NCBI GenBank assembly: GCA_027604505.1
Contig: JADIIX010000003.1
Coordinates: 62,001 to 126,000 of the forward strand
From: Gonapodya sp. JEL0774
Taxonomy: Eukaryota
DNA: 64,000 bases
Direction of reading: 5' to 3'
Part shown: positions 46,801-64,000 of the stretch, in pieces
How the letters are laid out: the number at the start of each line of letters is the position of its first letter
Position numbering within the stretch: the first letter of the stretch is position 1
Translations under genes and position numbers: made by a program
The notes under the pieces: model-generated
Seen by the model: the letters and a program-made list of their open reading frames with translations, nothing else
What the model was told of the DNA's origin: nothing
Database searches by the model: none

Positions 46801-49599
46801 CAGTGATGCGTACAAGACTTGCAACGTTGCGGGTGCCACTCCTGGCAGTCTGCTCATCGACGGCAGTGACTACGTTTACCAAGCTTTCGGATTCACGGCA
46901 TATTCTTCAACCGTTTGGTGGAACTTCGGGGCTGTTGCTGGGCTCTTCGTCATTTCGATTCTGATGGCCGTGAGAGAAAGCCTTTTAGAAAAGTTTTTTT
47001 CTTGCATTCTAAAGTATGAACTTTCCATAGGTTGTTGTCTCGGAGATCGCTGAGTTTGGGGCCAGCGGAATCAACAGCATGATTTACAAGAAAGGCAAAT
47101 TGCCCCGTCACCTCGAGAAAGCTGACGACACCTCGGTGGAGATCAACGAAAACGCAGTTACTCGCGTCGCTTCTCTTGAGATGAGCAATAGCCTCAACTT
47201 AACCTGGCGAGGGCTGAGCTATTGGATCACTCTTCCAACCGGAGAGCGTCAACTCTTGACAAACATCTCCGGTGCTGCCCGCCCCGGTCGAATGCTCGCC
47301 CTCATGGGATTTACGGGCGCCGGTAAAACTACCCTTCAAGATGTGCTTACTCGGCGAAAGACAGACGGACGGATCGAAGGGTCCGTGTATGTTGGTTCTC
47401 TGCCACAAACCTCTGGATTCAAGCGAATCATGGGATACGCAGAACGTGAGTCTCAAATTCTGGCCTTTCGTGAATGAGTGTTGTGCTCTTTGTGATTCCG
47501 TCACTCCTATTCAGAAATGGACGTTCACACTCCGACAAGCACGATTCGCGAAGCGTTGCGATTCTCCGCTTACCTTCGTCAACCCCCGGAAGTTTCTGTC
47601 GAGGAAAAGAACCGATTTGTTGAAGAGGTAACTTTTGTTATTATCACTGATTGCACTTTCCGAATATGACGATCGTTTTATCTTAGATCATCGAACTAAT
47701 GGGCTTGACCGATATCGCAGATGCTCTGGTCGGCAAGCTGGAGACAGGGGTGGGCATCAATCTCACCGATCGTAAGCGTCTCACAATTGCAATAGAGCTT
47801 TGTGCTCGCCCCGAGTTCCTCGTACTTGATGAGGTGTGTTTCGCCTCTGGCTATATTGTCGATTCAATTCTCTTAGTGTATTTCCTTGGCAGCCGACGTC
47901 TGGCCTCGACTCCTTCGCAGCTTTCCAGATTGTTAAGCTTCTGAAGAAACTCGTGAGCTTCTATTACCTGTAAAACTACTTGCGATACTCTGACATGTGC
48001 TTGTTTAAACACAGGCCGAGAAGGGGCAGGTGGTTCTTTGCACGATTCACCAACCTTCCGCGATCCTCTTCGAGCACTTTGATGATCTTTTGATGCTTGG
48101 TCCTGGTGGTAAAACTCTTTACTATGGAGAGATCGGGCCGAGTTCCAAAATTGTCACGAGCTATTTTGAAAAGCGCGGCGCAGCACCCTATGACCCGAAC
48201 GAGAATCCCGCCGAGTACGTTATGGATGCCGGTAATGGTTTGAGGAATGACGACATCGAAGCCTCAGTCGATTGGGTTGCGCTCTGGAAGGAATCTGAGG
48301 AAGCCAATGCTCTGGAAGCTATGATAGATAGACTTCGCAACATCCCAGTGGACGATGGGGCTCAGGAGTTGCAGAAGAAAGAGTACAGTCTAAACACACT
48401 ACAAGTGAGATGATCATCCGTTTTCTCCTCTTCCTGTTAGTTACGTACTCATCATTCAAAAACTTCCAACTCTTAGCAAATTCCAATTGTCTTGGAGCGA
48501 ATGATGTTGGCATACTATCGCAACCCCGACTACACTTTCGGCAGGGTGACAGTCGCTCTGATCAACACACTTATATTGAGTTTCTCGTACTACCAAGTCA
48601 GTCACGATGCAGGGGGAGTATCCAACCGCATCTACGCAATCTTCAATGCAGCCACGTCTGCTGTTGCCACGATTATGGTGAGCAGCTCCGATGTACATTC
48701 AGGATGCGATCTTGCTTACCCCCCGCGCCGTAGATATCACTACCTCACTTCCTTGAGCTGAAGAAGTACTTTAAGCGTGAAAACGCTCAGGGTTTCTATA
48801 ATTGGTTTTCCTTTTGCACCGCTATTACAATCGCTGAAGTGGGTATTGACTCGCTAAAATTGATTTGATGAACTTCACTCATTGGCCTCCAACATTTAGA
48901 TTCCGTACACAATTATCCAGTCCACTGTATACTTCGTGATCTTCTATTATGTCATTGGCCTGTCCAAGTCATTAGCAGACGGTGCGGTCTTCTGGGCATT
49001 CTTCACTCTCCTCCAATTCTTCGCCGTGTCGATCGGCCAGTGGATGTCGGCTTTGTTACCCAACCTTCCCTTGGTCACTGTCCTGGCATCTCTTATTACG
49101 ACAGTTTTCCCAGGATTTGCGGGCGTTGGTACACCCATATCGCTCATCCCGAAATTCTGGTATTGGATGTATTACCTTGACCCTTATTGTGAGTTGGTAA
49201 TCGTTTGTAGAGTTGATCAGCATTTGGGATTAATCCGCGATCTCGTTTATTCTAGACTACTTTAGCGAGGCGACTTTGGAGACGGAAATGCACGGCCTGA
49301 ATATCCAATGCCAGGACTCCGAGTTCCTTCGTTTCGCACCCCCTCCCAACAACACCTGCGAATCGTACATGGCCCCTTACTTTGCCGCAGGAGGACCTGG
49401 TTACCTGCAAGACCCTACTTCTACCACCCTGTGTGGACTTTGCCAAAGCGCAAGCGGTGAAGCTACTCTGGCAAACCAGTTCTCATTTTCTCACGACAAC
49501 ATTTGGCGCAACTTTGGCATTCTCGTCGCAATGATCGTCATGAATCGGGTGTTGTTATACGTGTTTATGAGGAGGAACGCTATGGTGTCTGCCAAGTAA
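43882..49599 (+). CDS. Full-size ABCG/PDR-type multidrug ABC transporter (many introns)
   Basis: NBD1 LVLGKPGSG...[10 protein letters not shown]...[13 protein letters not shown]2 [12 protein letters not shown]...[10 protein letters not shown]...LDEPTSGLDS, CTIHQPS; PDR-type cysteine extracellular loops. Confidence 0.95.
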
Positions 49600-50030
49600 C
49601 CGCATTTAGTGAAGGGATAAGTGCACCTTGGGTCCCAAACTTCAGTTGCAATCTCGTTGGATATACGGCAAACTCGGTCGCAAACCACTGATAGATTAGA
49701 ATGGTCATATTTTCTCCGCATCGCATAAATTGAATACATAGATAGTCTCAGTGACGCTTTGCTGCCTGTGTGAATCAACGTGAAAGTTCTTGCAAGCACA
49801 TCCTTCGCTCTCGTTCATGCAATTATCACCCGCTACAAATGTGGATGAAAACCGTGTATAAAAGTGGTGGTGGCGTACGATCCCAGACTACTTCAACTCC
49901 AGTCGCCACAACTTCTACTATGTAACAATTGTAACCCCTCCAGGAGGATATCCACGATCTGAACCAGGGTATGAGGAGAAGTCTTCAAAGAGTACCCGCC
50001 TTAGAAGTTGTCACCCTCACCATCCAAAAA

Positions 50031-50197
50031 CACGGCAAAACAGCAGGTCCCTCAAATAGGAGGTGAGACCTTCACTTATCGACAAGTCTTCGGACCTCTG
50101 TCATCTAGAAAATTGGAAACGATACAGAGAAGATTAGCATGGCTCCCTGTGCAAGGATGACACGCAAGTTCTGAGATGGATCTCAAATTTTTTTTTT
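50031..50197. repeat. Repeat A, inverted copy of about 58138-58304
   Basis: Identical by eye to the reverse complement of the U6 locus, including 50 bp upstream. Confidence 0.97.
50081..50192 (+). ncRNA. U6 spliceosomal snRNA copy lacking the downstream B-box (possibly non-expressed)
   Basis: 5' UUCG hairpin (GACAAGTCTTCGGACCTCTGTC), ACAGAGA box, AGATTAGCATGG, CCTGTGCAAGGATGACACGC, T10 terminator. Confidence 0.9.
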
Positions 50198-50470
50198 CTA
50201 TTCCCATAGTCTCTCTTCTCCCCGGGACTCAAGTCACTCTCCTACTCACTCTCCTGGTCACTCTCCCCGGGACTCATGTCGTCTCCTACGCTTAGAGTCA
50301 TCCATCTCAGGACTTGGGAGACTAACGTCACTGGAGTCTGGCTGAAATAGAGACGGACTTCAGTCACAGCGTACTACACAAGTCACTGTTGGGTGTCGAC
50401 AAGTCTGTTCAGTACTCCCGTTTCCCACCGCATGATGAACATATGTACATATCAACATATGATACACCTA
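50198..50470. repeat. Repeat B, inverted copy of 52737-53013
   Basis: 273 bp, differing by 1 substitution and a 4-bp CCGG indel. Confidence 0.97.
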
Positions 50471-50915
50471 TTGACATAACTCCCCGCAAATCAAGCCCGA
50501 GCCACGGTCTTGTCATTCTCGGTAACAGTCGGAGAAGGGGAGCATTGCTCACAACCATTGCTATTGTCAACGGCCTCACCGAGCTCATTTCACATGCGTA
50601 AGCCGTGCCGTGGCCCCGATCATCTCAAGCTGGCCAAAGAAGCACGTAAAATCCGCGAAACTCGAACGCAACACAGGTTGATCGAAGCATGCGAATGCGT
50701 ATAGCCGTACTTTTTACACAGAAAACATTTCAAATTGAGAGGCGGAGTCACGCGGAGCTTCATATCGAACTGTCCTGACCGTACCTGGCGCCACGTTTCT
50801 CATCAACGGAATAACGACCTTTACCCGTCTCTGCAATATATCAGCGCCTTCGATCTTGCATCATTTACCCTCTTGATCACTGAAAAGTATTGACTGCAAT
50901 TACATCACCGACACT

Positions 50916-51983
50916 ATGAAGTTCGAAGAGTTCAATCCTGCCCGCGACATGCCAAGTCTCTCGGGGAAATGCATTCTCATCACTGGAGGTGAACATTGAT
51001 GTTTCGCACTGGAAGGGTGGAGAGTTCTGTTACCTATTTAATATCTGCCTGTCGGAAAAACTTCCCGGCCGTATTACTCACTAGGCACTGCGGGACTCGG
51101 CAAAGACGTCGTTCTCGCGCTCGCCAAGATACAAAATCCTCCATCGAGAGTATACTTTACTGGCCGCGCTGTATCAACTGACAAGGCAGCTGCAGTCGAA
51201 ACAGAGTTCTTGGACGCCCTCCCACTTCAAGCCAAGTCCACCAGCAAGGCGGTCTTTGTGCCTTGCGATCTCGCATCGCTCGCAAATGTGAAACAAGCAG
51301 CTGGATTGCTCGTAACATATCTCCAAGAGAACGACCCCGCTGCCACACCTCCGCGCCTTGATGTTGTCATTTGCAATGCCGGGATCATGGCTGTCCCTCC
51401 ATCGGTCACCAAGGACGGCTTCGAGATTCAGTTCGGGACAAATTACATGGGTCACGCACTGCTCGTCAAGCTTCTCCTTTCAAACCTTGTTGCCGCCAAA
51501 GGTCGCATCGTCTCGGTAACGTCGCAGGGACAGGGGTTCGCTGACATCATTCCAGGCGGTATTGCGTTCTCCAGTCTCTTGTCGGAACAAACTGGATCTG
51601 GCTTTGGGTTCTTGGGGACCTGGAAGAAGTACGGTCAATCGAAGCTAGCCAATGTCCTTTTTGCACGTGAGATTGCCCGACGGTACCCCGACGTCACAGC
51701 CATCTCCATTCACCCTGGCGTAGTTAATACGGGTCTCGTTTCTACGCTTGGTTTCTGGAACAACCTGTTGGTGAAAGTAGGCGCTCGTTTCAATTCCCCC
51801 GAAGATGGCATCAAGAACCATCTGTGGGCCATTGGGTCGGAGAAGTCGGCTGTTAAAAACGGAGGTTACTATGAGCCCGTGGGAGAGCCTGGAAGGAAAA
51901 CGAGATACAATGAGGACAGTGAGCTGGCAGCAAAGTTGTGGGACTGGACGGAGAAGGAGCTGGGGAAGTGGACTACGACGTAA
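50916..51983 (+). CDS. Short-chain dehydrogenase/reductase (retinol dehydrogenase/WWOX-like)
   Basis: ILITG|GTAGLG, CNAGIM, QFGTNYMGH, YGQSKLAN, IHPGVVNT; one intron. Confidence 0.93.
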
Positions 51984-52736
51984 ACATTGCAGCAAGTGAC
52001 TACGTATCATTGCATTTGAGTTATTGTTCTCATTTTATATATAAGTGTCTGAGACCGTTGAATCCACAGACGCAGACACTATAGCCACAACCGACTTGTT
52101 CATTCTCGGGTAACATCTGCCGAACATGAATATCATAAGGCCCCTTGACGACTCTTTCTCCGAAGTTATTCTGTAAGTGAAAGCCACGTTCTATGCGTGC
52201 CGGATGACCTCCAATGTAGGTGCACGAGGTGCACTGTGTTCGGTTCCATGATCCAATATTGTGGAATCGATGGAACCACCTTCACTAAAACTTCCAAGCT
52301 CGCAGAGCAAATGGAAATCATGACGCTGTGGTAGTTACGCAATGGTGTGGTGAATGTATAATGTGTGCATGCCTGATGAGTGGAACTCATCGTTCAAATG
52401 CTGTAAGGTACCCTGTACGTGCAAATGATCACTCCCACTCCACCAAAATTCCAAATGTGCATGTAAATATTTGATTCTGTGAAACAGCTACTCCAGAGCG
52501 GTACTCTTAGTGTCTTTGACAATACTTCCTTTCGCGCAGCCTTCAAAGCTGCTATATCGCCTCGCCCTTTTCTACAGTAACGCTAAATATAATATCTGTG
52601 GGTGTGGCGTGTTTTTGGTATATGGTGATATGATATAGTACGGCAGATTCACAAAAACCGTTCCCAAACCTCTGGATCAACTGCCACGCATGAATCACCA
52701 CCCATCGGCTCAACAATACGTTTATTTCGTAATGTC

Positions 52737-53013
52737 TAGGTGTATCATATGTTGATATGTACATATGTTCATCATGCGGTGGGAGACGGGAGTACTGAAC
52801 AGACTTGTCGACACCCAACAGTGACTTGTGTAGTACGCTGTGACTGAAGTCCGTCTCTATTTCAGCCAGACTCCAGTGACGTTAGTCTCCCAAGTCCTGA
52901 GATGGATGACTCTAAGCGTAGGAGACGACATGAGTCCCGGGGAGAGTGACCAGGAGAGTGAGTAGGAGAGTGACTTGAGTCCCGGCCGGGGAGAAGAGAG
53001 ACTATGGGAATAG
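52737..53013. repeat. Repeat B', inverted partner of 50198-50470
   Basis: Reverse-complement match, read directly. Confidence 0.97.
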
Positions 53014-53760
53014 GAGAAGGCACCCTCAGACCCTGAGGCTCCTGCGGCACACCTGTGGGATGTCGTCAATATGTGGTACGATCACCACAACACCCCACAC
53101 GGACATCCCCGTCAGGCTGATGTTACAATGACACGAGGAGAAAAAAAATTACGAAGCGGTTGATTTGGAGGCATTGTGTGCCAACGTCGACTTGAATCTC
53201 GGCCTGCCTTCTGTTGCTGGCCTCAAGCAGTGGTAGGGGACGGCTTTTCTCGTCGTCGGCGATGGCTGGACAGCAAGCCCGTGGATGGATTATTGATTCC
53301 GGCGGTTGGTCCAATGTTCGGACCACTTGCTCATCTGAAGGGCAATAACCTAAAGGTGGTATACGTATATGTTATACAGGGCATTGCTGTACATCAATTT
53401 AAAAACTTAGGGCACGAAAGAAACCCTGAAGAGTCGGAGCACTCCTTGGGAATGGGGTGGTGCCTGATCAGGCAATCTGGCGGCGGATTCAGTTTGAACC
53501 TTCTTAGGGAACATTCCTGTTTCCCTACTGAAAATCGGCGTCAATACGAATGGAAGAAACACAACAATCTCACCCGAAATTGAGAAAGGAATGCATGACT
53601 CTCGAGCAAGTGAGACCTTCCATCTTGCTTCACGAGGAGGTTTGCGACGACTCCCCTCACTCCAAATCAACGTGATTCGTCACCTGTTTCGTTTCAAAAG
53701 CTCCCTCTCCTCCTCATATCCGATATTCAGAACCATCTGAAGACCGGGCCTCTCTCTCAC

Positions 53761-56700
53761 GTGTTCCGGGACATTACCTTTGCTCCATCTCAAGAAGTCC
53801 ACATTCCAGGCACCTGGGCAAATTTACACACGAACGAGACTCTTGATGCAGAAAACCTCGACACTGCACTTATCCCCCAGGTTTCAGTGAAACTGTCGGA
53901 GGGGCTTGTGGAGTTTCCCTTACCGAATGCCTACTTCTCATCGCTCGAGTATTGGCATGCGAACCGCCTGGACCGCACAGCAGGGTCTGAAGTCCTCCGG
54001 CACTCCAAAAGTACGCAGGGTGGAGCAGCGAACTTCCTCTTTACTTCAAAGCAGTGGATTCGTCTTCACTTGCACTCCCCAACCATTCCTGACCACCATG
54101 CTCCAACTCTGCCAGCATCTCTCTTCTCCACCCTGACCAATAATTCTTCATCTGCTCTTGCCATGGAACCTAGGCGGAAATCGGGTGCTTTTGCGCAGGG
54201 TGTGGCGCGGCGTGTTGCAGGTGACCTACCGGAACAGGATCGGGATGACTACTGGAGGAAACTCTATTTGGCATGGTGGCTCCTGCTGAATTTGAGGCTC
54301 AACGCAACAGATTTGAGTGGTATTGTGGACGTGGCTCCAACAGCGCAAGGCTGGGTCAGTTTTCCAAAGCACAGGAAATCCTTTGTCGACAGTCTCACCA
54401 AGATACTGCGGGACCAAAATTGTGCTCAGCTCGCTCTGTATGTTGGCCAAAGTCTACGAGAACTGAATGACAAGCTAAAACTGTCAAAGCTGGCTACACT
54501 CTGTCAACGGTTCGAAGTTGCCCATGGTATTTTTATAGCCCGAACATTCGGCAGGTGGAGATCAGGGGTACTCGTCAGACTCTCCAAACCACCACATAGG
54601 CAGTTCCAATCTGTCATGTTGCTGGATATTCTTGGAGTGTGGAGTGTTGGCCTCTTGCTGAAACACCACGATGCTGGTGCCGTGGTCGTTGTTGGTGGGG
54701 ATGTTCGAACCCTGGAATCAGAGGCAGCACTCGCAACCATCAGCAATCAACTTGGAGACGCAGTGAATGTGGTCTGCCACACCGTGGTTGATCTTTTTGA
54801 GCCCCCTTTCAATCCGGACGGCAGCGTTCGTGCTCAGACAATTGATTTGCTCAACAACTTGATCCGTCGAAAACTACTTGGCCAAGAGCGGCAACCAATA
54901 AAGGACAGCTTCAGCGCTATTAGCTGCTGGGAGGAATCCGAACCCGATGTTGTCTTCCCGCTGATTGTTATTGTGATGCGTGTGTCAGACTTTTGGCAAG
55001 CCGTCCGAAACGGAGCGCTTCTGGAGCAGCAGTTGGTTGGACTGTTCTTCGGGATCCTCAATGGACAGTGGGATGAACTGGCGCAAGTGGAAGTTGACGA
55101 TGACTTTGTTCTCGGTGACAACGGAGACAACTTTGATGGTGCATTCGACGCATCGGAAGTGGAGTCAGCGGCGCAAGCAAAACCCACCGGGAAAACCAGT
55201 GCTCGCATTTTCTCGCCAAAAGTCAAGATTATCCTGGAATTTGCGTCGTCAAATGTGCATCCCCTGAAAAGTCGCACGTTCTTGTCGTCCTGTCTCAACA
55301 ACATAGCCGATTCGACTGGTGGAATCCTCGCGACCATTCACCCAGATCGGTTGACTCGCAGACCAAATGAAGTACGCGAGGTACTTTCCGCTTTGCGTGC
55401 TAAAGGCCTCACATGGGAACTTCTGCATCGAAACGGAACGAGATGGTCAAAGTAGTTGAGGAGAAGGTGATGAAGCAAGTGGAGCAGGGCCGAGCTCTCG
55501 CCCAGCAACAAGCGTTTTACACCAGGTCACAGATGTTCCAGCGCCGAGTCTTGGCTTCACTCCTTTCTTTCACTTGCACTTCCACCTCACACAGTTCGCT
55601 CTTGGAAGTACAAGCGGGATTCCGTCGTGTGGAGTTTCCGATAAAAGGAATTGCGCGAACAAGCCCTGTGGCGTGGTGAGTTGCTCCTTTGCATAATCTT
55701 GCTTCTTTGTATGGGGGGAAATGGCCTACGGGCGGTGGGACTCATTTGGGTAGATTCGAGATTTCGATCGACTTTTAGCAACACCGGTGATTTCTTCATT
55801 TCTAGGGGAGCACGGGAACCATCTGAGCTATCGATTACCACTCAAACTTCCTTCTTGAAATCCATCGTGGGACAGGAACAACTCCATGTCGTTCCTTTGG
55901 AGGCCGTGACTGCCTCCGAAGCAGACGGTGGCCGTGTGCTTGAATTCATTCAGTCTTGCGAGAGGAATGCTATCGTCGTTGCAGTCTCGTTGGATCGTAT
56001 TAGTCGTTCAACATCGGGCCTCCAAAGTATCCTGGAACTGTGCTCAGCGAAAAGCATCCGGATCATTGTCCTCCTTTGGCACCTCGAGTCGTTTCTCCAG
56101 CTGAGGGGCTCTCTCTCTTCTTGTGCTCCACGTGACATAGCTGGATGGCGAACAGAATTTGCTCGCACGGTGCTTGGACTCCAATTCTCCTGGGATCCAG
56201 ATGTTGCGCTGGCTCACCTCCCTGAACTTGAGTTCTGCGCATCCAGTTCTTACACCATGCCGCTTTGCTTTCCAGGCGACCTTGTACACCTCGGAATAGG
56301 TAACGCAGCGATGAGGATGGAGCTTCAGTTCGGTGAAGATTTTGCCAAAAGTGGAGCACGAAGAGGAAGGGAGGCTGCAAGGTTTGAGCGTCCGGTGGAA
56401 CAAGATATCTTGAGGCTCGAGATGAAAACAGACGTAAGGAACGGTCTCTTGACACCCCGAGCCCAGGATGCCGTTGGCAATGTTGCGCAAAAATTTTTCC
56501 CGGGAGCGTCCATCGAAGTTTTGTCGAGCTCAAACCCCATTGACTGCTTCTGTGTCCATCTCCCTCCTGGAACTCCCCACGCCAGTGACTGCCAGTGCCC
56601 CTGTCGCGGATGTCAGAGACTTCGACCGTGTATTTCACCTGATTGTTGTGCTGACAGAGAGCTCACACCCTGCACATGCTCTTTGCTGTGTTCTTGCACC

Positions 56701-57066
56701 TGTTTGTCGTGTCACAGGGTTTCTGTTGAGGCCGAGTTGCAGTCCGATCCAGACATTTCAACAAGCGACGGTGTGGTCGTGTCAGGAACAGAGGAGAGCA
56801 GGAAGCGGGAAGTGGAGCAAGCTCAGGAAGGGGACTCGGAAGACGCGGATGACGGTTCTGCTGTACCTTGTATTACGCTGTGTGGACGGAATCGGTCGGC
56901 AAAGACAAAGTGGTGCTCCAAAGAATGCTATGTTGATTACAGCAGGAACAACGGGCACGTCGTACGCACCTGTGACTTTTCCGGCTGCACAAACATATGT
57001 CCACCCGGTGCAGGTTTGAAATGCGAGAGTCACGTGTGGCGATGTGCAAAATTGGGGAAGCGTTGA
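53761..57066 (+). pseudogene. Tandem serine-recombinase (resolvase-like) domain protein with Cys-rich C-terminus; one frameshift, one intron, decayed 5' extension
   Basis: Domain 1: VIVMRVS(54985)...LEQQ...IHPDRLTR(55345), then helix-E-like QVEQGRALAQQQAFY in the -1 frame. Domain 2: IKGIARTS(55662)P-VAW|intron 55676-55805|GAREPSELSITTQ...VSLDRISR(55993). CxC-rich tail. Confidence 0.7.
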
Positions 57067-57576
57067 CCCAGGCTGGGTGTACGATTGGAGGGAAGTATGT
57101 TAATGGGTGTTTTGAATAGGCGTTATGATCCGGACGTGTGACTTGTAGTGCGAGTAGAATGAACAGACTTGTTGACACAACGGTACCGTCCAACATCTCG
57201 AGAACCACCAGCTCCCGAGTTACGACAGCTTACGCCGCACCTCTCATAGTTGGTGGTTCTGTTGCGAGGGTAGGCGTATACAGAGCGGGTCCAGTACCCT
57301 AGAGAGTCCCCGGCACGGGTTTGTCCGACCTCATTCTCTCACCTTCCCCGAGGCACGTTGACTCCACAGTATCCACCGACCACGTAGAGCACCTTTTCAT
57401 TGTGTTTGATGTTTTCGATTCGAGTCGGATGTTGGAGCAGCTCGCAGTGGGCGAGAAAGGTGGTGCGAGAGGAAAGAAGGTCAGCAACCGCGAGACCGAG
57501 AGCGAATGTTGATTCGGCCATGAAAGCAGTTGCGGCGCCATCACACACTCTGGGCGAAGCTATAATCACAGTTTCT

Positions 57577-57662
57577 GATTGGACGGAGACGAAAGATTGG
57601 ACGGAGGCGACAGATTGGACGGAGATGAAAAATTGGACGGAGACGGAAGATTGTACGGAGAA
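57577..57662 (+). repeat. 18-bp minisatellite x5 (GATTGGACGGAGACGAAA consensus)
   Basis: Five imperfect in-frame units; VQSxxS repeats on the minus strand. Confidence 0.93.
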
Positions 57663-58083
57663 CTGCGTCCAGTACATGACATTGAACGATCATTGCAGCC
57701 GACGCGCTAACCTTTACCCAGAGCTGATTCGATCAGCTATCCTCCTTTTTTCCATCGTTCACATATCATCATCCCGTTTGAGACCCACGACAGGGGTCGT
57801 CGCCGCTATGGCTGTCCGGTTCTCTCAGTCCAGTGACAGGTAGGTGTCTGATATCCAACCACACCAGAAGGCCACTCCCGTCCATCAAGTATCCAGTCCA
57901 TCTTTTTTATTGATTTTGCCGTGCTCGGGTAGTGAGAACGGGGGTAGGTGATGAGTGAATGCGGATCGTTGCTTGGGCGTTGGACCCACATATGTACAGC
58001 ACAAGTTCTTTTTTCCCCTGCCGACTGGACTGACACGCACAGCAACACTGAATGGAATGCTCATCAGAATCTGTGGAGAGCGA

Positions 58084-58093
58084 GGATCGAACC
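58084..58093 (-). promoter_or_regulatory. Pol III B-box downstream of U6
   Basis: GGTTCGATCC on the minus strand, about 28 nt past the T26 terminator; no tRNA stem around it. Confidence 0.75.
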
Positions 58094-58121
58094 ACCCATC
58101 TTCCTTGCCCCGGGCTAAGAC

Positions 58122-58147
<26 letters not shown>
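58122..58147 (-). terminator. Pol III terminator (T26 on minus strand)
   Basis: 26-A run on the + strand immediately 3' of U6. Confidence 0.85.
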
Positions 58148-58152
<5 letters not shown>

Positions 58153-58254
58153 GATCCATCTCAGAACTTGCGTGTCATCCTTGCACAGGGAGCCATGCTA
58201 ATCTTCTCTGTATCGTTTCCAATTTTCTAGATGACAGAGGTCCGAAGACTTGTC
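58144..58254 (-). ncRNA. U6 spliceosomal snRNA gene
   Basis: Reverse complement: GACAAGTCTTCGGACCTCTGTC...AATTGGAAACGATACAGAGAAGATTAGCATGGCTCCCTGTGCAAGGATGACACGCAA...TTTT. Internal A-box-like TAGAAAATTGG and downstream B-box. Confidence 0.93.
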
Positions 58255-59564
58255 GATAAGTGAAGGTCTCACCTCCTATTTGAGGGACCTGCTGTTTTGC
58301 CGTGCATACCACACAGGCCGCAGTCGTTGCGCCACACTGTCTGCCGCAGCACTTTCTCGTTGCACTCATTCTTCAGTCCAACGATTTGTGACTCTTTCCC
58401 TCCGTCTCAACCGTGATGTTCAACTCATGTGATTCCAGCACGGTGGCGATCGCGAACTTGGCACTCGCCAATCCCCCTCTTTCCCTTGATCCATCCCACA
58501 AGCTGTGCCGTCTTGTTTTCTCATCGTCATGTCGTACCCGCCCCCTCGGATTCTTCCCCTAATGCCCACCTCGCCACTCAACTGCGAAAGACACACCGCC
58601 GGGAATTGATTGGGACCTCGGATGTTGAGACCTCGGTCTTTGATGTGCCAAACTGTTGCTCCATTCAGTGCCCAAACTTGACATTCACTAGAGAGCCTCC
58701 AATCTTTTTGCACAAGGGATCATCATTGCTAATGAAATCTCGTGACGGCAAAGAATTTCACGCTGAATCCTCCGATGGGTGCAAACCACGGCATTCTGAC
58801 CTACCCCCTCCACTCCGTTGAGATTACCCACTTGAACGTTACTCGAAACCCTCACATCTGCAGCGACTAACCGGGCGCTCGCGCTCACTTCGAAATCACG
58901 TGAACCAACTTTTCCCAACTCCACTCGTTTCTCTCCGCCAATTTGACCTGCCGGAGAAGCAACCCTCGAACGCGCGCTCCGTCTATAAATCTCCTGTGAA
59001 ATGACTTGCCCTGAACTGCAGCTATAAGTGCTATTGCATCGCGTCTCGGACACCGCCCCACTGTGCACATTTGGGACATCCTGGAGCACACGTTCGTCTC
59101 CAAAAAGTGTTGCCAACGGCACCGCAAATCAGTAAATGAAGATCCCGAGCGAACGAAACCTCAGATTTATCATTTATGTAGTCCACCCGCCATAACGAAC
59201 ACGAAGAGTTTCGGAATCTCATCACATCAGGCCTCCCTCGAGTTGGAGCCACTCCTCAACAATACACCAAAACGACGTGCGGGACTTTGTTGCGGAAATT
59301 GTTGACGTCACAAGTACATCTTCATGAGCCGGTTCTGTACAGACTAGTATATCATCGGTAGAACGTAGTTACGAGATGCTAACCTTGTGAAATGAGATTC
59401 GACATAGGTTGTGAAACCGTGTCGACGGGAAGAATGCCCAATCAGTGTAATTTACCCAAGTAGGCTCTTGAGGAGGTACCCAACGTAATTCGTGGGAGTG
59501 GGAGTGCGGGTGGTGTTCGGCCTGCACATTCCGACCTTCCCCACCACGAACCAAATCCATCACC

Positions 59565-61461
59565 ATGGGATTCGACTACAGCATCCTCGTCAACATCAAA
59601 GTCGACATTCGTCCCGATGGCATATGCATCCTCACGTTGAACAGGTACCCCCTTGTTCTAGCCCCCCTGTTTCCCGCGGTGGACGTTCGGAATCCCCACA
59701 AAACCAACCCGGCTGCCCCCCCTACCCTATTTTTGTACATAGGCCCGAACGCATGAACTCGTGGAATGATTTCATGGCCATGGAACTTATTGTATGTGTA
59801 GGCTGGAGTGGGGAAAGAGCAAGAGTGGTTTTGGATTCAGGAGCTCTTGTGGTTTGAAACGATGTCCATCCCCATCACCAATTTCGATACCCACCCAACT
59901 CTGCCGCCAATCACGCTTGGCCTCGGACTATGGCCTCCTCACCTGCATTCTCTAACCCCTCACCCAACCCGCACCCCACCTCCTGTCCTCCCCTTTCCCC
60001 TCATATCTCCAGGTCGCCTTCGAAGAACTCGACCGCGACCCATCCGTCAAGGCCATCATCGTCGCCGGAGCCGGCCGCGCATTCTGCGCAGGCGCGGATC
60101 TGTCCCCTGCCGGTGCGAAAATTGCTGCGAGTCGAAGGGTGGACAGGATGAACCAGCACAGGGATTCGGGGGGGCAGGTCACGGCCAGGATCGCGAAATG
60201 TAGGAAACTCGTCGTGGCGGCAATTCATGGGCCGGCTGTGGGCGTCGGTATCACTATGGTGGGTCGTACTCTCGGTCGGACTTTTGACGGATTCGCAACT
60301 CACAGATTTGTGTCGCTGGTGTTCACAGACTCTCCCCATGGACATTCGAATCGTGTACAAGGGCGCAAAGATTGGGTGCGGCTCGGTGGTGTAGCTCTCG
60401 CCTTTCATACGCAGGGGATTCATTCACCAACAAACCCCCACTCAAACTCCAACCTACCCGTTTTCCTTCAGCTTTGTCTTTGTGCGGAGAGGAATATTAC
60501 CAGAAGCCGCGTCGTCCTGGTTCCTCCCACAACTCATCGGAAAGTCGCAAACGCAAGCCCTGTTCATGCCTGGACGGGTCCTCACGTGAGCGAGAGAGTC
60601 GCCTACACTCGTCGGGTCATTGCTCTGTCGAGGCTCAAATAGCACGACCGTGTTCCTCACTCACCCACTTTTGGAAAAGTGCCGACCATCATCTCTTTAA
60701 CGGGCTCTTCTTCGACCTCATCGATTCGCCGGACAAGGTTCTCCCTGCGGCTATCGAATTGGTTAAGGAAATCGTTCAGAACGCGAGTTTGGTGTCGATC
60801 GCGATTACAAAGGTGCGTTGGAGATACAACCTTGAATCTTGAAACCGGCATCTCGAAACTGTGGTTCACGTGGCTCGTCAGGCAATGGTCTGGCACGACC
60901 AGGGTTCACCAGAGGGACAGCATTTGCTCGACTCCAAGGTTAGTGCGGGTTGTATCCTAATATTCGTCGCTTGCTATTTGGGCTTACATATGTGTTTCTG
61001 AAAAGGGCATCCTCTACACTGGTAACGGAGCGGATTCTCGCGAAGGAACATCGTCGTTCCTGGAAAAGAGGTGTGCTGGAACGTCGTGATTTCTCTTCGT
61101 AAACATCCACGATGACTCTCTATAACATTGAATTACTAGAATTCCCGAGTTTCCTGGTCGGATCGACGGGCCCAGTGGAACATACGGTGAGTCGCTCGTA
61201 CCCGTTCTTTGGATTCGCTCATTCACCTCAACCACTGATACATTCAGGCCTTCCAAGCTACTATCCGTGGTGGAACTCTCAAGACATTAGCAGTCCCGAT
61301 TGGGTGAGCTGAGTCGCAGCGCTCCTCGCACTGGGGATTCACTCTGGCTGGTAGACCTTTGCTGACCACGGTTGTCTACTACGCAGCCCACCGACCGTGC
61401 TTCGCAGCTCGCGCTGCTCGCACAATTCCGCAAAATTGAGGCGGAGAACAGCAAATTGTAG
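59565..61461 (+). CDS. Enoyl-CoA hydratase/isomerase (crotonase), predicted peroxisomal (SKL)
   Basis: ILTLN|RPERMNSW, GAGRAFCAGADL, VAAIHGPAVGVGITM, FVRRGILPEAASSWFLP. Final exon ends AENSKL*. Confidence 0.9.
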
Positions 61462-61710: not shown

Positions 61711-62687
61711 TCATTCCTCAGTCACTTGATATGACTGCAACCGCCTCTGCTGTTCCTCTCGCACTTGGTCCTGTTTCCGATGCACCTTCGCCGATTCGTT
61801 GACTTTGAATCCAAATATCCTAGGCACATATCGTTCTGCAGGTTTTGATGGTACAAGGTTCGGATACACCTGAAGCAGCAAGTGCGGAAGGGTTGTTCCA
61901 AAGTAGGATCCGTCGATTCCGGCGTGTCGTCGGAGGGGGGGGTGGTACAAGTCCTCGCACTTTGGGCAATAAATCTTCACCGAATTTTCCATGGGCACAT
62001 CCGACAGCCCAGCTGGCAGGACGGGCTGATTGTGACAGAGCACTCGTGGACAACGTCCAAACTCTGCCCGTCGGAATTTCTCAACCATTTTGGCCAAACC
62101 TCGTGAGGTAATGACATATCGAGCATGTATCAGTCCATAAAGATGCCGCGCTGATCGTTCAACCTCTGCCCGTGTATCGTCGTCCAGTTCTTCTTCAAGT
62201 GCGTCGGTTATGAGGTCCAGTGCCAGCTGGTAGTGTGTGACCTCTGTGTTTAGTCCTGTCAAATTGAAGCGGTCGAGGATATACTCCTCGTCAATCTCAG
62301 AGAAAAATTCGTTTCCTTTCAGAGACAAGAACCACTGCGGGAAACGGACGGCAAAGGAGACGTTAGCCACACCCTTCATCCGACCTCTGCAATCCCCACA
62401 CTCCACTTCTTCTAGCGTTTCCTACAGCTATCCCGGTGATAGGGAGAATCAACCCAAACGTGCCAGTTATGCCATGCCTTACTAACCTCAATCCAATATT
62501 TGGTGTAATCGTCTGATGCCGCATCCTCCATGCCCGCTGAAGATATCACGGATCCGATACCACCAGGCACAACTGAAGTCTCGTTACTCATCAGTGCACC
62601 CAGTCCTGCCATGCTCTGTCCTCCTCCGGTGGGTTCCTCTTCAGACTCCTCAGAGGTCTCCCCCGTTCGCCCCGGCTGGTGCCCCAT
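61711..62687 (-). CDS. CKB1: Casein kinase II regulatory (beta) subunit
   Basis: YWIE|WFLSLKGNEFFSEIDEEYILDRFNLTGL, LYGLIHARY, FGRCPRVLC, KIYCPKC, IDGSYFGTT, YVPRIFGFK. Intron 62486-62335. The frame is open upstream to 62990, so the start may be earlier. Confidence 0.93.
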
Positions 62688-63317: not shown

Positions 63318-64000
63318 TTAAATTTTCGAGGCGGAAGCCTTCAACTCAGCTCCTCTTCGTCTATATTCCTCAATGTTAGAAGGCCAGAGAGGATCGGAGC
63401 TGACATCGGTGTGCTGCCACCAGGGGTAGTTAGATGGTAGGCCGTACTTTCCATTTGCTGGATCGTTCTTTACATTGAGACGGCCTGCAAATGCAGGAGG
63501 TCTCTTCTCTAAGAACGAAACGGCTCCTGTGCGTTGAAGAATAAAGTCAGTTGCATGCTCGTGCAGGCCACCAGAAGGTGAAGGTACGACGGACCTTCCA
63601 ATCGATCAGTGCCAGTGCTGGTGTGGTGAAGCATCTGGGAGTCAAGCAGATGCTGGCCTTCTGGAGTTTCGGCACCGTGCCAGACCAGTGCTTTGGTTAT
63701 CGCTGTTGACACAACAGAACATTCCACTGCGATTTCTTTCGCCAGTGCAAGTGCTGCAGGCAACACCTGTTCCGCCTTGTCGACAATCTCGGTAAAGAGG
63801 CCTTGAAACAGATGGTTTGATGCGGGAAGCACACGCCCAGTCATCATGAGAGCAAGGGAGCGTGACTTGCCGATGAGTTGTGGGAGGAAGTATGACGACG
63901 CCGCCTGCAAGTTTGCGTGAAAAGAATGGAAAGTTTGTGTTGCGCAACGCTGTCACACGTTGCTATGGTACGAATGGCGGCACTGAAGGCGAACTAACCT
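63318..64000 (-). CDS. Second enoyl-CoA hydratase/isomerase paralog, 3' part, ending SKI
   Basis: AASSYFLPQLIGKSRSLAL, ITKALVWHGAETPEGQHLLDS, GLPSNYPWW...ASASKI*. Runs off the right edge. Confidence 0.88.

Follow-up and report, generated by a model that had tools for sequence, protein, structure and literature searches.

A fungal gene with two serine-recombinase domains and the putative U6-carrying transposon around it

The DNA considered here is a window of 64,000 nucleotides (nt), positions 62,001 to 126,000 of contig JADIIX010000003.1, from Gonapodya sp. JEL0774; Gonapodya is an early-diverging fungus. Within the window lies a gene of about 1,090 codons that encodes two serine-recombinase domains in one chain, followed by a Cys-rich tail, and that is interrupted by one frameshift near 55450 and by a GT-AG intron (55676-55805). 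It sits in a 5.6-kb unit (52729-58304) that also holds a gene for U6 small nuclear RNA (snRNA), and the two ends of this unit recur, joined to each other, in a nearby inverted copy of 450 bp (50031-50480). The reading developed below, to which we give a probability of roughly 0.55, is that the gene encodes the transposase of a fungal DNA transposon with U6 inside, and that this transposase is a single-chain, pseudo-dimeric serine recombinase. The 450-bp copy would then be a deleted derivative likely spawned by the long unit.

The recombinase gene and its protein family

Both sets of catalytic motifs can be read from the translation. In the first, the arginine and serine of R-x-S are encoded at 54979 and 54985-54987, and DRLTR at 55345-55359; in the second, the corresponding positions are 55656 and 55662-55664, with DRISR at 55993-56007. 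The Pfam family Resolvase (PF00239), whose cut-off is 23.3 bits, matches domain 2 (55807-56100) above that value, with 27.0 bits and an E value of 5.4e-6, and domain 1 (54940-55452) below it, with 16 bits and an E value of 0.013. The PHROG matches of the domain 2 frame are to one integrase family and one invertase family.

Does the arrangement occur elsewhere? A phmmer search with the last exon against 1.84 billion representative proteins returned three matches: P0001, which is the deposited model of this very gene and is 99% identical to it, P0002 (1,105 amino acids [aa]), and P0003 (442 aa). Relatives are thus rare, with two besides P0001. P0002 has no interruption and, from domain 1 onward, is colinear with the protein of the window. 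The two are about 25-30% identical, with z scores of 12.5 for domain 1, 4.7 for domain 2, and 21.6 for the tail, each reached by 0 of 300 shuffles. Their N-terminal 400 aa or so show no significant likeness (z at most 0.5). P0003 begins after R-x-S, has D-R-x-x-R, and covers the latter half of domain 2 together with the tail. Because the intact P0002 has the identical domain order, the recombinase represents a family. Pattern searches of IMG/VR, JGI metagenomes, GTDB, and plasmids, which are insensitive and cover mostly prokaryotic data, gave no relatives, and the single pattern match in the JGI metagenomes was set aside as a chance bacterial hit. Word-indexed protein searches returned the queries themselves or nothing, and sequence searches of the PDB nothing significant. 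The ESM Atlas gave a resolvase cluster at 0.78, a lead only, and nothing for P0002.

To which serine recombinases are the two domains closest? The reference set comprised 88 distinct bacterial serine-recombinase domains. The 95 hits were sorted crudely by locus and length into 14 distinct IS607, 42 large, and 21 small recombinases, with 14 hits set aside, a sorting that left some cut-off large recombinases in the small set and took the IS607 set from one bacterial phylum. Unfiltered HMMER finds two serine-recombinase domains each in the window protein and P0002, and PF00239 passes its cut-off on the latter with 28.8 bits over two stretches. HHalign, run over windows of 130 aa (33 along the window protein, 34 along P0002), peaks at probabilities of 67% for domain 1 and 93% for domain 2 of the window protein and at 86% and 80% for P0002. 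Both domains match small and large serine recombinases far better than IS607 TnpA. An IS607 origin, considered from a likeness in helix E, is unsupported: model NF033518 has no match, bit scores against the 14-sequence IS607 profile from its one phylum are negative, and the HHalign probability for that profile is at most 6% in every window. On these comparisons, the domains do not look IS607 derived.

A preliminary description of this DNA had claimed two resolvase motif sets in one gene and had proposed a Pfam or profile search as the check. The motifs as read, the PF00239 match of domain 2, and the HHalign peaks agree in bearing this out. Its possible third, degenerate copy (GVLVRLSK, at about 54565) fared otherwise, with no hidden Markov model domain there and HHalign probabilities of at most 1% in every window preceding domain 1. 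The region before domain 1 has no Pfam match (searched as three tiles), no PHROG match (searched as the whole open reading frame [ORF]), and no PDB match. An OTU domain was not detected either.

Catalytic serines are present in both domains of both full-length proteins. In each of these proteins, all the signature residues of domain 1 are present (R-x-S, the Gln in helix A, E-x-x-S and the Arg after it, D-R-x-x-R, and an Arg in helix E), while domain 2 has R-x-S, the Gln, and D-R-x-x-R, with no clear conservation of the remaining motif residues. The pair is probably asymmetric, since domain 1 retains all the motif residues and domain 2 does not clearly retain the other arginines; judged by its residues, domain 2 may be only partly active. 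Foldseek with the first structure model, which at a predicted local distance difference test (pLDDT) score of about 35 is too poor to inform, found nothing at an E value of 0.001.

Three ORFs overlap at the gene: 53614-55455, 55404-55679, and 55645-57066. Once the 130-nt intron is removed, the second continues into the third without a change of frame. The splice sites of this intron resemble those of the eight introns of a neighboring gene, although at 130 nt it exceeds them in length (61-96 nt). The frameshift falls between RWS, which ends at 55449, and VVEEK, which starts at 55452. Because the protein on both sides of it aligns to the intact P0002, it is real in this sequence, and because of it this copy of the gene is probably dead, unless the shift is a sequence error. 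Read through, the gene gives 1,078 aa counted from 53701, plus a short 5' exon. The start lies upstream of 53761, as the frame is already open from 53614, and a short exon at about 53550-53640 is likely: the deposited model places it at 53595-53639, and an alternative GT-AG pair (53610-53730) is also in frame. Positions 53608-53620, at the candidate donor site of the first intron, match the DNA directly upstream of U6 at 12 of 13 nt, which may be chance.

P0001 contains the same intron at 55676-55805. It bypasses the frameshift by means of a further intron, 55351-55406, which deletes residues conserved in P0002; it also omits most of the Cys tail and merges the gene with a downstream enoyl-CoA hydratase gene. 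On these three grounds, its exon structure was judged a prediction artifact. The genes beside the recombinase gene are spliced eukaryotic genes. The earlier argument that the intron assembles the second motif set, and that the gene is therefore eukaryotic, is upheld by the restored frame, the matching intron of P0001, and these neighbors; a tandem recombinase in a spliced eukaryotic gene still stands and recurs, intact, in P0002.

What about DNA binding? Of the 176 aa in the tail of the window protein, 24 are Cys and 5 are His. Across the family, it has 24-27 Cys in two clusters, the spacing of which is conserved in all three proteins. Pfam scans of the window ORFs, P0002, and P0003 detect no helix-turn-helix (HTH) family. 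The preliminary description had a CxC-rich, zinc-binding tail in place of an HTH; of this, the Cys-rich tail and the missing HTH stand, while the binding of zinc is still inferred from the Cys pattern.

The long unit and its short inverted copy

Comparison of the window with itself yields two inverted matches. Positions 50031-50197 match 58138-58304 at 167 of 167 nt, and 50198-50480 match 52729-53013 at 97-98% identity. In the short unit, these two pieces abut; in the long unit, they lie on either side of the gene. Hence 50031-50480 is the reverse complement of 52729-58304 without 53014-58137. The short copy is about 1% diverged, lies about 2.2 kb from the long unit, and has new flanks. The outer limits of the long unit are set by the ends that the copy shares, with the left limit uncertain over 52728-52737.

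How did the short unit arise? The 167-nt piece holds the complete U6 gene and 50 nt of DNA upstream of it. Because these 50 nt are included, the short unit was evidently copied at the DNA level, and an origin as a U6 retro-chimera was rejected on the same ground. Since the short unit has no B box, it is the derived form and the long unit the parent. A staggered-break inversion was also rejected, because it would not yield the two pieces in this order, and an assembly collapse is unlikely, given that the copies differ in substitutions, indels, and the length of a T run. No target duplication of at least 3 nt is present at the long unit, and the short unit has only two 3-nt matches; neither unit has a terminal inverted repeat. 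Both copies have GTG rather than GG at the right end, and GT or TG occurs at both ends of both copies, which could be chance. The possible transposon family of the preliminary description thus gains support from a copy that shares the ends, lacks the interior, and shows no target duplication.

An 11-nt motif has five matches in the 64 kb, all of them within the long and short units. In the long unit, it occurs near the left end, just past the gene (within the 19-nt repeat, of which 18 nt match), and over the start of U6 (58246-58256), so that two of three independent sites lie within about 70 nt of an end. The left-end segment was considered as a possible structured RNA and gave no Rfam match and folding z scores of -2.6 to +0.2 against simple shuffles. 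The U6-like stretch of 17 nt within it is suggestive only, with 7 of 2,482 background tiles scoring equally. More loosely, 52760-52915 is colinear with the U6 sense strand and its upstream DNA (58146-58296), like a decayed and inverted right end; 7 to 82 of the 2,482 tiles equal this alignment, depending on the scoring. The B-box-like element past U6 matches a strict search pattern for such boxes. Downstream B blocks can serve fungal U6 genes (PMC5855946). An 18-nt tandem repeat (57577-57661, 4.7 copies) also lies inside the putative element, within a 151-codon ORF (57388-57843) that has no significant Pfam match. The coordinates of the main features are collected in Table 1.

Table 1. Features of the long unit, the recombinase gene, and the short copy (positions in the 64,000-nt window)
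Feature	Position	Strand	Remarks
Short inverted copy, likely a nonautonomous derivative	50031..50480	-	Both long-unit ends joined; 53014-58137 missing
Second U6 copy, within short unit	50081..50192	+	Without downstream B box
Putative full-length mobile element	52729..58304	.	5.57 kb; left end, recombinase gene, U6 gene at right end
Left-end segment, noncoding	52729..53013	+	Short internal tandem repeats (8-nt and 12-nt periods)
19-nt direct repeat, copy 1	52796..52814	+	Contains 11-nt motif; candidate (inferred) recombinase binding site
17-nt stretch like U6 3' region	52891..52907	+	16/17; inverted relative to right-end U6
Likely short 5' coding exon	53550..53639	+	Limits uncertain: 53550-53609 or 53595-53639
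N-terminal region	53701..54942	+	About 410 aa; no assignable domain
Serine-recombinase domain 1 and helix-E-like segment	54943..55530	+	Acidic insert of about 50 aa; interrupted by frameshift
Frameshift (mutation or sequence error)	55450..55452	+	Flanking frames both align to P0002
Serine-recombinase domain 2	55641..56400	+	Split by intron just after catalytic Ser; end approximate
Spliceosomal GT-AG intron	55676..55805	+	130 nt; restores frame; also in P0001
Cys cluster 1, CxC rich, predicted multi-zinc module	56545..56716	+	Spacing conserved in 3/3 proteins; no Pfam match
Cys cluster 2, two predicted zinc fingers and stop codon	56869..57066	+	Conserved in 3/3 proteins; no significant Pfam match
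19-nt direct repeat, copy 2	57160..57178	+	18/19 identical to copy 1
B-box-like RNA polymerase III promoter element	58084..58093	-	About 30 nt past U6 terminator; sole strict-pattern match in window
U6 snRNA gene, full length	58143..58254	-	Rfam RF00026, 81.4 bits; 5' start overlaps 11-nt motif (58246-58256)

Between the 287-nt inverted repeats that the left end forms with its copy is a short-chain dehydrogenase gene (PF00106, 50917-51983, plus strand); being enclosed in this way, it is open to inversion by homologous recombination. On the far side of the short unit, which starts 430 nt past its stop codon, is the 3' end of an intron-containing membrane-protein gene (48500-49600, plus strand), presumably that of a fungal ABC transporter by its resemblance to the eye. 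Two related enoyl-CoA hydratase-like genes face each other at 59956-61458 (plus strand), the one wrongly fused to the recombinase in P0001, and 63509-63952 (minus strand), with a 41-nt match at 88%. A gene for a casein kinase II beta subunit (PF01214), an ordinary neighbor for a eukaryotic gene, occupies 61711-62421 on the minus strand.

A proposed mechanism and its rivals

How might such an enzyme move DNA? According to PMC6188088, serine recombinases make a 2-bp staggered cut and swap strands at a dinucleotide that is identical in both partners, so that no duplication results. By analogy with this chemistry, one chain would form a pseudo-dimer from its own two domains, and two chains would build a synapse with four active sites. 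The predicted zinc fingers would stand in for an HTH and recognize short motifs close to the ends of the element, with the 11-nt motif as the candidate. Staggered 2-bp cuts and subunit rotation would then allow excision and reinsertion without target duplication, the element leaving as a circle and reentering at a matching dinucleotide. A chain that supplies both subunits of a dimer would be suited to asymmetric ends, and domain 2 might cut less or serve as a scaffold. As for U6, it is probably cargo captured at the right end; otherwise, it would be a neighbor used as a surrogate end.

A transposon of this kind is favored because of several observations taken together: (i) two domains, and no more, are found in both full-length proteins, which are colinear; (ii) the ends of the long unit are joined in new flanks; (iii) target duplication and terminal inverted repeats are absent; (iv) the 11-nt motif is clustered; and (v) relatives are rare. 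Target duplication and terminal inverted repeats are likewise absent from elements moved by serine or tyrosine recombinases (PMC3627910 and PMC6188088). Other observations weigh against it. There is one derivative copy in the window, only 2.2 kb off, and a local templated duplication could look alike. The 11-nt motif was selected after the fact, and the broader similarity between the left end and the sequence past the gene is unconvincing, being reached by 6 of 300 shuffles and exceeded by 1 of 374 window tiles. One conserved arginine is missing from domain 2 of both P0002 and P0003, the single-sequence structure models are poor (mean pLDDT, 35.7 and 34.2), and the 90% cluster of P0001 contains one member.

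Could the gene simply be immobile? An orphan or domesticated host gene, with the 450-bp copy an unrelated, repair-type duplication templated from both sides of it, would account for the introns, for the locality of the copy, and for the fact that protein searches revealed no second coding copy. The copy, however, takes just one piece from either flank of the gene, with order and orientation kept; a decaying mobile gene better explains the frameshift and the identity of about 25-30% to the relative, and both catalytic serines are kept in both full-length proteins. We consider this explanation unlikely, though it survives best among the rivals.

More doubtful is a shorter mobile element that truly ends at the 19-nt repeats (52796 and 57160), with U6 a host neighbor that served once as a surrogate end or marks a preferred insertion neighborhood. 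The repeats do bracket the gene closely, the start of U6 has the same 11-nt core, and small-RNA genes are known safe targets, the ends of Dada elements sharing short motifs with U6 (PMC3706591). Yet the short copy runs about 60 nt past the left repeat and 48 nt past the U6 motif, U6 is unsplit, and the far end has no direct-orientation fragment of the U6 3' region.

Two further alternatives are improbable. A site-specific invertase, flipping either the dehydrogenase segment (50481-52728) or the whole block (50031-58304), would fit the 287-nt and 167-nt inverted repeats that enclose both segments and the weak PHROG invertase-family matches, but a single inverted local insertion accounts for both repeats together, and bacterial invertase sites are about 26 bp long, not hundreds. 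That the gene is mere cargo of an element mobilized in trans by a rolling-circle or tyrosine-recombinase type of enzyme would suit the absent target duplication equally well, and there is a CTAG near one end of the long unit on the minus strand, but the short copy has CTAT there, the shared sequence continues beyond it, and no other transposase ORF was found in the long unit.

Whether the putative transposon founds a superfamily of its own, the second in eukaryotes based on a serine recombinase and separate from IS607, with a single-chain, asymmetric dimer aimed by zinc fingers and here carrying or homing on U6, is an even bet. If it does, the classification of eukaryotic transposons would gain a superfamily built on a structurally unrelated serine-recombinase family. 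Strand exchange by serine recombinases is thought to need the rotation of subunit pairs, so two fused catalytic domains pose a mechanistic puzzle, one that a natural fusion makes testable. Such a fusion also shows a route to asymmetric recombinases for nonpalindromic sites, a long-standing aim of genome engineering. The link to U6, in turn, suggests a safe-harbor or promoter-capture strategy hitherto seen with other enzymes.

Comparison with known recombinases and transposons

Small serine recombinases, composed of PF00239 and a C-terminal HTH, share with the present family the catalytic motifs and the best profile matches. They are, however, single-domain proteins of about 200 aa, whereas the window protein and P0002 are about 1,090-1,105 aa long and combine two domains with a Cys-rich tail. 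The motifs and the best profile matches are likewise shared by the large serine recombinases (phage integrases and CcrA/CcrB). The Recombinase domain and the zinc-ribbon/coiled-coil part that follow their catalytic domain have no Pfam match in the window ORFs, P0002, or P0003 at E values up to 10, and HTH_7 is not detected either. Both groups have one catalytic domain per chain, are prokaryotic, and have no introns. CcrA and CcrB, which are paired and separately encoded, provide a precedent for two unlike recombinase subunits.

Among eukaryotic elements, Dada resembles the long unit in its link to U6, its short subterminal motifs shared with U6, its internally deleted derivatives, and its Cys-rich fingers. 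As described in PMC3706591, it uses a DDE transposase, splits U6, and makes 6-7-bp duplications, whereas here U6 lies whole inside the copied unit, there is no duplication, and no DDE family has a Pfam match in the window ORFs or P0002. Cryptons, mentioned in PMC13565253 and PMC3627910, are eukaryotic (including fungal) elements that rely on a conservative, site-specific recombinase and cause no target duplication, but their enzyme belongs to the tyrosine, not the serine, superfamily.

This leaves IS607. According to a 2026 review, IS607EU is the only known eukaryotic DNA transposon with a serine recombinase (PMC13565253), and the eukaryotic serine recombinases described in the parts consulted of PMC3627910, PMC3673617, and PMC2715888 are of the IS607 type; PMC6431247 and PMC10680173, as far as their available text goes, concern bacteria. 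No description of a tandem-domain eukaryotic family turned up in full-text literature searches, with Repbase, supplements, and most subscription papers outside the scope of the search. Judged by five sources (PMC13565253, PMC3627910, PMC3673617, PMC6188088, and PMC2715888), the likeness of IS607 and IS607EU to the present element lies in a serine recombinase as the likely transposase, the absence of terminal inverted repeats and target duplications, short repeated end motifs, and an occurrence in eukaryotes, including fungi. In the same sources, the single catalytic domain of IS607 TnpA follows an N-terminal, MerR-type HTH, and the enzyme travels with TnpB or Fanzor2 and acts on elements that end in GG. 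The element described here, which does not end in GG and has no TnpB/Fanzor2 gene among the ORFs scanned inside and beside the long unit, differs in uniting two catalytic domains and a C-terminal Cys tail in a single chain of about 1,090 aa.

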